A DNA stretch of 32,000 nt from Vibrio alginolyticus NBRC 15630 = ATCC 17749 (GCF_000354175.2 NC_022359.1:90001-122000), one strand, 5' to 3'; counted from the first letter of the stretch, positions 22,635 through 31,214 are shown. Notes: generated by a model not told the origin, from the sequence alone. Numbers and translations: made by a program.

Positions 22635-22654
22635 AGCTCCGCACTGGCGGAGCT
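22635..22654 (-). terminator. Rho-independent terminator closing the five-gene minus-strand operon; shared with the convergent MCP gene
   Basis: agctccgc (22635-22642), loop actg, gcggagct (22647-22654). On the minus strand it is followed by TTTTCTTTTC. The plus-strand tail is weak. Confidence 0.75.
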
Positions 22655-22691
22655 TATTAACATCTGGATTCGTGAAAATCCAACGGGGTGA

Positions 22692-23264
22692 TTACTCCTC
22701 GTCAGTAACCAGCAGAACAGAGGAAATGTTCGTTGACTCTAGTGGGTTCCAGTTGTAAACCTCACCATTAAATGAATCAAACACCATAACGTTTGAGCCA
22801 TCACCGTTTGGTGTGTTACTCCAGATGTAACCAGCATAGTCACCCACCTCTAGCGTGTAGCCACTTGCGAATGCAGTGCCGTTCATAGCAGGGCTATGGC
22901 AAGCACGTTCTGTCAACGCGACTAACTCCTTAATGTTTGGTATGCGCCAATTCTTTTTGCCAGCGAAGTCATATAAAGCATGATTACCTGATTCATTGCG
23001 GATTTGCTCAGCGGTTGATAGCGCTAACTGCCATGACATCTTAGTCGCAGCGCCATCACAAGCTTCGTTTGCCGTATTCCACGTTGAACCAACAGGGCAA
23101 CGCATCCATGTTAGACCTGTTTTCAGGTCAGTTACGGTACCGCTCTCAGAATATGTATAACGCGTGTTAGGTGCCGTTTTAGCAAAGTCAGTAGAACACT
23201 CTTGTGCAGCCATTACAGTTTGAGAAGCCAAAGCAAGAGATAGTACAGTTATTAATTTCTTCAT
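22692..23264 (-). CDS. Secreted DUF1566 (Lcl C-terminal domain-like) protein
   Basis: 190 aa with signal peptide MKKLITVLSLALASQTVMA. It carries DUF1566 hallmarks TGLTWMRCP and WRIPNIKELVAL. The start lies 1 nt after the upstream stop. Confidence 0.75.
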   Translation of the reverse strand: MKKLITVLSLALASQTVMAAQECSTDFAKTAPNTRYTYSESGTVTDLKTGLTWMRCPVGSTWNTANEACDGAATKMSWQLALSTAEQIRNESGNHALYDFAGKKNWRIPNIKELVALTERACHSPAMNGTAFASGYTLEVGDYAGYIWSNTPNGDGSNVMVFDSFNGEVYNWNPLESTNISSVLLVTDEE

Positions 23265-23265
23265 C

Positions 23266-29128: not shown

Positions 29129-31126
29129 TTACTGCTCCGCTTTAGATGTTTTAATGAGTGATAGTAGAAATGCGTATTCTTTTGCTTGTTGTTCTTGCGC
29201 TTGTCGTGGGTCCATTTGGTGGCCCGAATTAAAATCAGTTTGCAACAAGTACGGCCCGTTGCGCTCACTTAACGCTGAAACTTTAGCCAGATACTTTGCG
29301 CCTTCCCAATATGGCACGCGCTGATCAATTAAACCGACTTGAACCAACATGGGTGGGTAAGCGTTTTTATGGATATTGAGAATCGGATCGTACGCCTTCA
29401 TTAACGCCAATTGTTCAGGTTTGGTTGGGTTACCCCATTCGCCATACTGCTGTGTGGTAAGCGGAAGTGAGGTATCCGACATACTTGCAACCACATCAAC
29501 AAAAGGCACTTTAAGTACGACACCTGAAAACAATTTAGGATCTTGATTAACCGCTCCGGCCACCAACGTACCACCAGCACTAGAACCGATGGCGAAAACC
29601 TCTCTATTGCCACGTTCGAATGTTTGCAGCGCCTTCGCGGCCGCGACAAAATCACCAATAGAATTGGCTTTTCGCACACCACGGCCTTGCTCGTGCCATT
29701 CATCGCCAAAGTACCCACCGCCACGGACATGGGCGATAGCGTAAATCACACCTTGGTCGAGTAAACTGATAACCTGAGGCATAAAGTACGGTTTCATCGT
29801 AAAACCATACGCGCCGTAACCGTAAATCATCACAGGAGATTGTGGGTGCAATTTGTCTTTGCGATACGCCAAAGAGACCGGGACAGAAACGCCGTCGTGC
29901 TTAATAAAAATACGTTGGGATACATAACGCTGACTATCAAAGTCTTGGTAAGCATCTTGAGAGTACAAGGATTTATTCAGCGTTTTTACATCGAACTCTT
30001 CCCACTGAGGAGGCGTAGTCATCGACATGCTTCGGATACGAATTTTGTTTGATTCAAAATCGCCCAATGTGCTTAGCCAAGCGACATTACCATCGTGTTC
30101 CAATGGCAGTATCACTTTTTCCTGCCCTTGGTAAGAATACACCGTCAATGTCGACAAGTTGTTTGGCTTACTAAGTGCCACAACTCCTGCATCATAAAGG
30201 TAGAACTGTTCAAGCGGCTCACGAGGATTGGTAAAGCGTTGCCATGTTGCGCCAAGCGGTGCGAGTTCGGCTTGGTAAAGGGCGAACTTTCCTTCCAGGT
30301 TGCTTTTAAGATAAATGTAACCTTTCGCCACATCCGCGTAATATTCCACACCCACTTCAGGCTTTCGCAATGAATCTGAGACAGTGCCCGTTTCTAGGTC
30401 GACAAGCTTCTGCTCTGTTGTTGACTCGTTGTTGCTTTGCAGCACAGCATAACGGCTATCTGCCGCACGATAGAAAGAAAGTAACCAATCTGACTTGGGT
30501 TCATTCCATAGGACTGTTTTTGCCAAAGATTCAGTGGAGATACGTAAGATCTGATGAGGTCGCTGGGTGCGCTTTTCTTTTGCAACGAGGAATGCCACTT
30601 TCCCGTTAGGTGACAACAATACGCCACTATCGACGTGCGTCGCCAGTTCCGTAGATTGACCGGAGAGTAAATCAACAACCACAGCACGATATTGTTCGCT
30701 GCCGTCGATATCTTCCGTGAAAAGGAGCGTGTCACCATTCACTTGCCATTGACCAAGTTGGTAGTACTGATGCGCAGATTGTCGTTCATCGAAATCGAAC
30801 ACCACGTTTTCTGGTGCATGTTGACTCGCACGGGATAACAGTAAGTAACGACCATCGCGACGCGTTAGCGTCCACTCTCTTCCACTCACGATCGACCATG
30901 GCTTATCACCTTTGTCTGCCACCATGGTATCCCACTGCGTGAGTAGGTTTTTTGTCAACGTCTGATAACTTTTTTGGTGCTGTTCAGTTTTGTGGTTTTG
31001 TTCTGTTAGGTAGGTAAGAACTCGCTCATCTTTACGAGCATCATCTCGAAGCCAGTTGAAATCATCAGCAGCAAAGCCAGAACTAGAGGTAATTATGAGC
31101 CCTAAAAAAACATGAGTAAATTTCAT
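29129..31126 (-). CDS. ptrB: S9A serine peptidase, an oligopeptidase B (protease II) homologue with an N-terminal signal peptide
   Basis: 665 aa. The N-terminal FNWLRDDARKDERVLTYLTEQN and C-terminal VPFVDVVASMSDTSLPLTTQQYGEWGNP align by eye with E. coli PtrB, recalled from memory. The catalytic triad candidates are GSSAGG (Ser), GLIDQRV (Asp) and NSGHQ (His). Unlike E. coli PtrB it begins MKFTHVFLGLIITSSSGFAADD. Confidence 0.85.
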   Translation of the reverse strand: MKFTHVFLGLIITSSSGFAADDFNWLRDDARKDERVLTYLTEQNHKTEQHQKSYQTLTKNLLTQWDTMVADKGDKPWSIVSGREWTLTRRDGRYLLLSRASQHAPENVVFDFDERQSAHQYYQLGQWQVNGDTLLFTEDIDGSEQYRAVVVDLLSGQSTELATHVDSGVLLSPNGKVAFLVAKEKRTQRPHQILRISTESLAKTVLWNEPKSDWLLSFYRAADSRYAVLQSNNESTTEQKLVDLETGTVSDSLRKPEVGVEYYADVAKGYIYLKSNLEGKFALYQAELAPLGATWQRFTNPREPLEQFYLYDAGVVALSKPNNLSTLTVYSYQGQEKVILPLEHDGNVAWLSTLGDFESNKIRIRSMSMTTPPQWEEFDVKTLNKSLYSQDAYQDFDSQRYVSQRIFIKHDGVSVPVSLAYRKDKLHPQSPVMIYGYGAYGFTMKPYFMPQVISLLDQGVIYAIAHVRGGGYFGDEWHEQGRGVRKANSIGDFVAAAKALQTFERGNREVFAIGSSAGGTLVAGAVNQDPKLFSGVVLKVPFVDVVASMSDTSLPLTTQQYGEWGNPTKPEQLALMKAYDPILNIHKNAYPPMLVQVGLIDQRVPYWEGAKYLAKVSALSERNGPYLLQTDFNSGHQMDPRQAQEQQAKEYAFLLSLIKTSKAEQ

Positions 31127-31183
31127 ATAGAGAGCGAATTCATTTATAGGATTAATACAATGGCGCGTATTCTGCCCTTAAAT

Positions 31184-31214
31184 AAAAATGAGATCAATTA
31201 TCATTTTCATGATC
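31184..31214 (-). promoter_or_regulatory. Overlapping Fur-box-like sequences upstream of the five-gene operon
   Basis: The reverse complement of 31190-31208 is GAAAATGATAATTGATCTC, a hand-counted 14/19 match to GATAATGATAATCATTATC. Neighbouring 19-mers at 31184-31202 and 31196-31214 each match 13/19. The site is centred about 70 nt upstream of ATG 31126 and contains a -10-like GATAAT. Confidence 0.6.

Follow-up and report, generated by a model that had tools for sequence, protein, structure and literature searches.

Why does a hemin receptor keep, across several genera, the company of two exported proteases and of a pair of lectin-like proteins? The question is raised by a five-gene unit in Vibrio alginolyticus NBRC 15630 = ATCC 17749, found within a stretch of 32,000 nucleotides (nt) (GCF_000354175.2, NC_022359.1:90001-122000). 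This stretch is referred to here as the window, and positions are counted from its first letter. Listing of the open reading frames (ORFs) over the window places five of them in a row on the minus strand, at 31126..22692. In order they specify an S9 peptidase known as 'PtrB', a TonB-dependent heme receptor, a zinc metalloprotease and two proteins of the Lcl_C (formerly DUF1566) family. Very probably, the unit is the ortholog of the ptrB-hutR/hvtA operon, a Fur-controlled locus with a hemin receptor, and its other products would be accessory factors to that receptor. No contradiction to the identification of the operon was encountered in the evidence assembled.

As an operon, such a unit would be a textbook Fur-regulated heme-uptake locus and nothing new. 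The initial annotation of this DNA knew of no functional description of a module of this kind, which does not hold; the operon has been published as ptrB-hutR/hvtA, and its receptor has been characterised as one for hemin. The 2001 account of V. cholerae by Mey and Payne is said to describe the co-transcription of ptrB and hutR only. The hvtA operon of V. vulnificus consists of ptrB (VV2_1548), hvtA and three hypothetical genes, VV2_1550-1552, and its five genes are co-transcribed, with products of reverse transcription polymerase chain reaction (RT-PCR) across all junctions (PMC6813434). Iron limitation induces hvtA in wild-type V. vulnificus, and a fur mutant has lost this response. The operon, which has a Fur box 5' of ptrB, has been equated with the V. 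cholerae ptrB-hutR of Mey and Payne (PMC6813434). The Fur regulon tabulated for V. parahaemolyticus includes the five orthologs, which RNA sequencing found co-induced 20.7, 11.9, 5.1, 3.6 and 2.8 fold in gene order (PMC12341060). By its gene order and products, the region in the window is evidently the ortholog of V. cholerae ptrB-hutR (VCA0063-VCA0067) and of V. vulnificus ptrB-hvtA-VV2_1550-1552. The operon has therefore been described already, and its iron and Fur control in V. alginolyticus is what orthology would predict. The single Fur-controlled transcription unit that had been proposed for this DNA gains support from the V. vulnificus RT-PCR, from the response of hvtA to iron and Fur, and from the V. 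parahaemolyticus regulon. That the V. cholerae-type set is regulated by iron and Fur, as had been stated at the outset, was also correct.

The layout of the window unit is that of an operon, as had been noticed at the outset. The ORF listing bears out gaps of 0, 9, 25 and 1 nt from the first gene to the last. The junction between the S9 peptidase and receptor genes, gcGGAGcagTAAATGaag, contains TAAATG at 29131..29126 with a Shine-Dalgarno-like GGAG just 5', an arrangement typical of genes that may be translationally coupled. Intrinsic terminators bound the unit upstream and downstream and both fold strongly, at -18.3 kcal/mol (z = -6.1) for that of the DEAD-box helicase gene, within 31378-31425, and at -15.2 kcal/mol (z = -4.4) for that at the operon end. 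The Pfam families found were Peptidase_S9 with its N-terminal propeller, Plug with the TonB-dependent barrel, P_proprotein together with the motif HELGH, and Lcl_C twice. Export signals, read by inspection and by their conservation, are predicted on all five products and are kept in the orthologs.

How widely is this arrangement kept? One genome per species was scanned with a profile of the protease, and 80 loci were retained. Gene order and strand are identical for all five genes in 35 of them, from Vibrio, Aliivibrio, Photobacterium and Agarivorans, and three more loci are interrupted by contig ends. The 35 include the loci of V. cholerae (L028) and A. fischeri (L012), both on chromosome II. 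Their gaps are mostly 34 nt or less, with a ptrB-receptor gap of 86-140 nt in several Photobacterium loci and in V. nigripulchritudo (L020). Co-localisation of the five families in relatives is thus strongly conserved, and the V. cholerae synteny that had been proposed is real, the same five genes standing in the same order with VCA0065 as the protease. Identity to V. cholerae for genes 1 to 5 is 44, 52 (the receptor at the same position), 42, 37 and 49%.

A smaller set is found outside these genera. The loci of Shewanella benthica (L038) and Psychrobium (L041) lack the S9 peptidase gene and have the other four, for the receptor, the protease and the two Lcl proteins; both receptors pass the TonB-hemin cut-off, and a Fur-box-like site matching at 14-15 of 19 positions lies just upstream of the receptor. 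Linkage of the receptor with the protease and both Lcl genes holds in every one of the 37 loci whose contigs span all four. Around 38 distant protease homologs (Bdellovibrionota, Oligoflexia and others), profile hidden Markov models for the four partner families found no partner within 8 kb. Because the S9 peptidase is missing from the Shewanella and Psychrobium loci, and because the distant loci are without partners, the linkage appears to be specific to one protease subfamily, with a core of four genes and the S9 peptidase as an add-on.

Some of the loci have features of their own. In Psychrobium sp. nBUS_13 (L041, 3498-4700) an IS256-family transposase gene adjoins the receptor gene directly on its 5' side, which hints that this cassette is mobile or recently rearranged. 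The protease ORF of Photobacterium halotolerans (L034) is only 257 aa, Photobacterium sp. Hal280 (L031) has a lipoprotein ORF of 346 aa and a 428-nt gap, and the S9 peptidase of V. nigripulchritudo is shortened; these disrupted genes may be pseudogenes or assembly errors. On a 1.9-kb contig (L029) labelled as a Patescibacteria metagenome-assembled genome are part of a protease, with 52% identity to that of the window, and the start of a lipoprotein gene. The contig is most likely a Vibrionaceae-type fragment misplaced there by bin contamination.

The region 5' of the first gene carries the features expected of Fur control. A Fur-box-like sequence had been proposed about 70 nt upstream of the first ATG, and it is confirmed there (58-88 nt upstream) and marked out by a phylogenetic footprint. 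Its 19-mers match the consensus GATAATGATAATCATTATC at 13, 14 and 14 of 19 positions. They provide the only sites of at least 14/19 in the 32 kb, for which mononucleotide shuffles give about 1.4, and their overlap at 6-nt offsets looks like the hexamer-array signature of real Fur sites. When the 150 nt 5' of the first gene were aligned over 19 Vibrio, Aliivibrio and Photobacterium loci, the sole alignable block was AAATGATAATTGATCTCATT, with a -10-like hexamer (CAGAAT, CAGTAT, CAATAT or TAGTAT) at constant spacing behind it. A Fur box of at least 13/19 stands 5' of ptrB in 31 of the 35 five-gene loci. The window box is identical at 16 of 18 positions to the published Fur box of the V. vulnificus hvtA operon, gtaaatgataattgatgt. 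The predicted sigma-70 promoter (Table 1) scores 8/12, under the threshold of the consensus scan, and its -35 element lies within the Fur box, which suggests repression by occlusion.

Table 1. Features of the five-gene unit and its surroundings in the window.
Feature	Position	Strand	Detail
ORF 1, S9 peptidase 'PtrB'	29129..31126	minus	665 aa
ORF 2, TonB-dependent heme receptor	26987..29128	minus	713 aa
ORF 3, zinc metalloprotease precursor	24725..26977	minus	750 aa
ORF 4, Lcl_C lipoprotein	23266..24699	minus	477 aa
ORF 5, small exported Lcl_C protein	22692..23264	minus	190 aa
Fur box	31184..31214	minus	three overlapping 19-mers, 6-nt offsets, core gaAAATGATAATTGATCTCATT
Predicted sigma-70 promoter	31169..31197	minus	-35 TTGATC 31197-31192, 17-nt spacer, -10 CAGAAT 31174-31169
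Intrinsic terminator, operon end	22634..22655	minus	9-bp stem, 6 G-C pairs, T-rich tail
Intrinsic terminator of DEAD-box helicase gene, upstream boundary of unit	31386..31416	minus	hairpin AAAAATCCGAGTG-TTCG-CACTCGGATTTTTT
Consensus-scan promoter-like site	31120-31092	minus	inside S9 peptidase gene
Consensus-scan promoter-like site	23461-23434	minus	inside lipoprotein gene
BatD-domain protein	12770-14485		flank (ORFs from 12770 onward covered)
GGDEF protein	14615-16738		flank
pst-like phosphate ABC transporter	17066-20619		flank
Methyl-accepting chemotaxis protein	20947-22590		flank, downstream neighbour of the operon

The genes on either side have nothing to do with iron. They encode a methyl-accepting chemotaxis protein, a pst-like ATP-binding cassette (ABC) transporter, a GGDEF protein, a BatD protein and the DEAD-box helicase, whose C-terminal domain is at 31451-31945. 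An Rfam scan of the whole window returned no RNA family, and repeats sought over 22400-31500 were limited to short matches no better than chance. Terminator-like matches in the unit other than the bounding terminators are weak, the scan total being 9 against 9.3 expected from shuffles. Among them, within the gene for the 477-aa lipoprotein on the minus strand (24264-24277), is a hairpin of G and C only, CGCCGATGCCGGCG, followed by TTTCTCTTTC; it is terminator-like with only 5 pairs, and such matches are no commoner than chance. The consensus terminator scan omitted the helicase terminator despite its strong fold. Flanked by runs of A and of T on opposite sides, that terminator might stop transcription from both directions.

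The ancestry of the operon is mosaic. We compared 22800-29200 with the flanks at 21200-22400 and 29201-32000. The flanks are those of a Harveyi-clade Vibrio and are alginolyticus/diabolicus-like. Over the helicase end, the promoter, the S9 peptidase gene and the gene for the chemotaxis receptor, identity is 84-92% to V. diabolicus (L004) and 60-82% to V. owensii (L024), the latter being 60-74% where the promoter and the S9 peptidase gene lie. The pattern changes where the S9 peptidase gene meets the receptor gene: from there to the end of the operon, identity with V. owensii is 90-98%, and V. diabolicus alternates in this segment between blocks of 60-72% and 90-97%. One breakpoint is the gene junction itself, at 29128/29129. 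The receptor-protease-Lcl-Lcl cassette has thus been exchanged by homologous recombination between species. Set beside the V. cholerae ptrB-hutR and V. vulnificus hvtA operons, the window unit has the same gene order and orientation, the same Fur box position and core, a heme-family receptor and a GlyGly-CTERM protease. It differs from them in species and in this recombinant tract, and no functional difference is apparent.

What are the five proteins? The receptor scores 418 bits against TIGR01785 (TonB-hemin), for which the cut-off is 316.85, and has the plug (PF07715) and barrel (PF00593) domains of Pfam. Its closest solved structure is PhuR (8the, E = 1e-46). The protein has a signal peptide (...SQVHA/ES), a TonB box EEVVVTA and a C-terminal Phe, and the FRAP/NPNL-type boxes with a His between them are present as YRAP...H...PNMDL, YRAPEYDKAYGFVSHDFVPLTPFVIAPNMDL, variants that match other Vibrio receptors. 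The receptor is thus recognisable as a member of the TonB-hemin family and as the ortholog of HutR of V. cholerae and HvtA of V. vulnificus, which are hemin receptors and import hemin.

The protease has the zinc-binding and catalytic residues H310, E311, H314 and E334, invariant in an alignment of 14 sequences, that form an HEXXH motif with a Glu 20 residues on. It consists of a signal peptide, an FTP-like propeptide region, a gluzincin domain of thermolysin fold, a beta-rich middle region, a P-domain (PF01483) and a GlyGly-CTERM. In a Foldseek search its AlphaFold model (predicted local distance difference test (pLDDT) 84.7, predicted template-modelling score (pTM) 0.83) matched thermolysin, vibriolysin, aureolysin and the M36 fungalysins (E ~1e-8, probability 1.0), and its C-terminal part matched the P-domains of furin and Kex2. 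Distant homologs carry PF02128, PF07504 and PF01447 (M36, FTP and M4). The window protein stays under the Pfam thresholds, with 15.4 against 22.4 bits for PF01447 and 14.0 against 23.3 for PF02128 (E ~0.03). Because the gathering scores of M4 and M36 are not reached, we would class it as a divergent family within the clan MA(E) gluzincins. It shares the HEXXH-Glu arrangement and thermolysin fold of M4 thermolysin/vibriolysin and M36 fungalysin, as well as an FTP-type propeptide in its relatives, and differs from both in these sub-threshold scores and in the addition of the beta-rich middle region and the furin-type P-domain.

The GlyGly-CTERM reads SGGGSGGSGS-PWTLLGLFLLSMV-RVIRSR and is kept in the operon-linked orthologs. 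An SVAGG-family match to residues 717-745 is weak, and the model has a helix at 732-748. No rhombosortase was found among those window ORFs that were run through general family scans. The protease is the ortholog of VCA0065, a putative zinc metalloprotease that is one of six V. cholerae GlyGly-CTERM proteins and has been found in secretomes; a rhombosortase mutant has less of it in the supernatant. The protein had been called a surface metalloprotease, a description that VCA0065 does not bear out, as it has been detected in culture supernatants only and never in membrane fractions. The sorting signal is shared with VesA, VesB, VesC and Xds of V. cholerae; the absence of VCA0065 from the membrane fraction sets it apart from VesB.

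Both Lcl proteins exceed the cut-off of 34.9 bits for PF07603 (Lcl_C), the 190-aa protein with 87.6 bits and the 477-aa protein with 44.3. The longer protein has a lipobox (LAG/C) with Gly at +2. It is built of an N-terminal beta-sandwich and helical region, a disordered linker and a C-terminal Lcl_C domain, which is C-type-lectin-like. Its model (pLDDT 72) gave nothing significant in a Foldseek search of the PDB, the best matches being cohesin-like and transthyretin-like sandwiches at E = 8e-3. The N-terminal 200 residues matched no known fold in that search, and a relaxed Pfam search of the lipoprotein returned only a sub-threshold hint of Big_1. The 190-aa protein is a single Lcl_C domain with four invariant cysteines, behind a signal peptide (...VMA/AQEC) that is conserved together with the QEC motif. 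The idea that the two are recent duplicates was rejected, since BLASTP aligns only short DUF1566 motifs between them. In the Lcl protein of Legionella, Lcl_C is a C-type-lectin-like, glycosaminoglycan-binding and trimerising domain (PMC11162425). DUF1566 proteins elsewhere act as adhesins, among them the glycosaminoglycan-binding Lcl and the leptospiral Lsa25. In the literature on VCA0066, VCA0067 and VV2_1550, no functional study was found.

The C-terminal half of the lipoprotein, in the alignment covering window positions 23201-23600, exists in two allelic forms of the distal Lcl_C half. One V. alginolyticus sequence (P0123) equals the window lipoprotein to about residue 320 and is V. harveyi-like (as P0143) from there on, with a 6-residue insertion. 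The same 400-nt block falls to 60-68% identity in several close relatives. Recombination seems in this way to have diversified the part that putatively binds a ligand.

The S9 peptidase has the S9A architecture, with a propeller (PF02897) and a catalytic domain (PF00326). Its closest solved structure is Serratia OpB (7ywp, E = 1e-97), with whose catalytic triad its GSSAGG, Asp and His align. It had been called PtrB-like, which is a loose label: the protein scores 357.6 bits against the NCBIfam OpdB equivalog NF007511, where the cut-off is 1313, and lacks the residues that set P1 specificity. Where OpdB has GE(Y/F)(D/E)EWGNP, and Serratia OpB GEYDEWGNP, the window protein reads QQYGEWGNP, with Gln and Gly in place of two acidic residues, Glu576 and Glu578 in Salmonella numbering. 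In each of the 36 operon-linked orthologs the motif opens with QQ or QE, then Y/H, then a variable residue, so that Glu578 gives way to Gly or to some other neutral residue, and a signal peptide, MKFTHVFLGLIITSSSGFA/AD in the window protein, is present in all of them. Glu576 of Salmonella oligopeptidase B sets the specificity for basic P1 residues (PMC3778648). Because of the low equivalog score, the signal peptide and the missing acidic pair, the operon 'PtrB' is not a canonical oligopeptidase B. It is predicted to act in the periplasm as an S9A oligopeptidase whose S1 pocket is non-basic. Against oligopeptidase B proper (OpdB/PtrB, S9A, EC 3.4.21.83), the likeness lies in the propeller, the alpha/beta-hydrolase domain and the Ser-Asp-His triad, and the difference in the N-terminal signal peptide, the Gln/Gly substitution and the far lower score. 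By its defining residues, then, a heme-operon gene named ptrB is no oligopeptidase B, a point for annotation. Between the alginolyticus and harveyi subclades the S9 peptidase shows 66-68% aa identity and the adjoining receptor 85-97%.

How might these proteins work together? In iron-replete cells Fur-Fe(II) on 31184-31214 would cover the -35 element of a weak promoter and block transcription. Under iron starvation a single mRNA would run to the terminator at 22634-22655, its tight or overlapping junctions (TAAATG) coupling translation. The receptor would carry out TonB-energised import of hemin at the outer membrane, from where the hemin would pass to an unlinked periplasmic and ABC heme system. 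The protease would be secreted, with its GlyGly-CTERM processed by rhombosortase. The Lcl proteins would act as one outer-membrane lipoprotein and one small soluble protein, each C-type-lectin-like. Together with the protease they may serve as accessory factors that expose protein-bound or particle-bound heme to the receptor, and the S9 peptidase may have joined later, in Vibrionaceae and Agarivorans, to break down peptides that enter the periplasm. All functional ties of the receptor to the four remaining products are ones that we infer. A shared function of the module can be argued from a linkage that persists and from a four-gene core that moves as one; the most economical view has the four other proteins giving the receptor access to bound heme.

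Several observations weigh against a role of this kind. For growth on hemin the receptor ortholog reportedly suffices, and therefore the other operon genes are dispensable for free hemin. V. vulnificus without hupA and with the operon intact grows at 37 C on hemin and not on hemoglobin. This hemoglobin assay may be uninformative, because the operon is induced 400-1000 fold at 25 C and far less at 37 C. A conservation analysis of both Lcl proteins found no conserved His or Met, the lipoprotein keeping two Tyr only, so that there is no obvious ligand set for heme of the hemophore type; as negative evidence this counts weakly. The exclusively supernatant location of VCA0065 goes against the simplest version of the proposal, and VCA0065, for which RpoH control is reported, is also abundant in the supernatant of V. 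cholerae cultures not reported to be iron-starved. The fold-induction in V. parahaemolyticus declines along the operon (PMC12341060), which fits extra internal promoters, as does the reported RpoH control. Because of these two observations such promoters are plausible; they would add to read-through and not abolish it.

Would the module then be a full harvesting pathway, a set of separate functions under one control, or more than one transcription unit? In the first case the Lcl proteins would capture a host hemoprotein at the surface, the protease would cleave it, the receptor would import heme or a heme-peptide, and the S9 peptidase would trim peptides in the periplasm. Co-transcription and shared Fur control in relatives, the linkage of a heme-type receptor with the protease and both Lcl genes in 37 of 37 spanning loci, the export signals on all products, the ligand-binding C-type-lectin-like nature of the Lcl C-terminal domain, and a predicted periplasmic S9 peptidase with an altered S1 pocket are all consistent with it. 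The failure of V. vulnificus to use hemoglobin at 37 C with the operon and without HupA, a V. cholerae protease that is in the supernatant and not on membranes, Lcl proteins without conserved heme-ligand residues, and a module that in Shewanella and Psychrobium dispenses with the S9 peptidase tell against it, and as a complete pathway we consider it possible and no better than that. About as likely is that the genes are co-regulated and functionally separate. Low iron would then be a signal of host or particle; both exported proteases, together with the lectin-like adhesins, would serve colonisation and peptide nutrition, and the receptor would take up free hemin. The receptor alone explains hemin use, DUF1566 proteins elsewhere are adhesins (Lcl, Lsa25), VCA0065 is reported under RpoH and occurs in secretomes of cultures not reported iron-starved, and relatives of the protease are widespread without a receptor nearby. 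Yet order and very short junctions are kept across several genera, and a four-gene cassette that moves as one tract and persists in Shewanella and Psychrobium exceeds what co-regulation usually preserves, so this reading too stays among those we hold as possible rather than probable.

We think it unlikely that the operon is several transcription units, with Fur-independent internal promoters for the protease and Lcl genes and iron regulation confined to the S9 peptidase and the receptor. It would account for the fall in V. parahaemolyticus induction from 20.7 to 2.8 fold and for a VCA0065 that is reported as RpoH-regulated and detected in ordinary cultures. The co-transcription described by Mey and Payne, as cited in PMC6813434, also went no further than ptrB-hutR. 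The V. vulnificus RT-PCR products, however, span all four junctions, and junctions of 0, 9, 25 and 1 nt are too short for intergenic promoters. A sigma-32 site (TTGAA-N13-18-CCCAT), sought in the window to explain the reported RpoH control of VCA0065, had no match. The consensus promoter scan returned fewer sites than chance, with two on the minus strand, both intragenic (Table 1), and internal promoters would in any case supplement read-through and not replace it. A single Fur-controlled operon with a hemin receptor and putative accessory factors thus stays our preferred reading.

Receptors with exported partners are known from other bacteria. In Porphyromonas gingivalis the heme receptor of hmuY-hmuR is co-transcribed with an exported lipoprotein and coupled to heme-releasing proteases, the gingipains, by the same logic as a harvesting pathway would have here. 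The families are unrelated, however; the gingipains belong to the cysteine proteases and HmuY to the hemophores, of the bis-His type, whereas the window Lcl proteins have no conserved His and any coupling would be hypothetical. In HpuAB, TbpAB and LbpAB of Neisseria and in HasA-HasR, a heme or iron receptor gene likewise adjoins the gene for an exported lipoprotein or soluble capture protein. The window lipoprotein differs in having Lcl_C and an unmatched N-terminal fold in place of the HpuA/TbpB handle-barrel or the HasA fold, and HvtA of V. vulnificus does not support hemoglobin use.

To the published operon the present analysis adds its gene order in 35 genomes, a four-gene core, a non-canonical exported 'PtrB', the fold anatomy of the protease and a recombinant tract. 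A further idea, which we put forward as doubtful, is that the four-gene core is a dedicated low-temperature machine that captures a specific hemoprotein of the environment or of ectotherm hosts, or a heme-bearing particle, digests it and supplies the receptor with heme or heme-peptides, a periplasmic S9 oligopeptidase of non-basic specificity having been added in Vibrionaceae to strip the peptides brought in. If this were true, DUF1566 proteins would gain a role as co-receptors of TonB-dependent transporters, and the core would be a proteobacterial counterpart of the gingipain/HmuY-HmuR system. Whatever keeps the receptor with its four companions, an answer would say what a widespread DUF1566 subfamily does, and likewise one of the six GlyGly-CTERM proteins of V. 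cholerae. The retention by vibrios of a second, cold-induced heme receptor might be explained as well, which bears on iron acquisition in pathogens of fish and shellfish.

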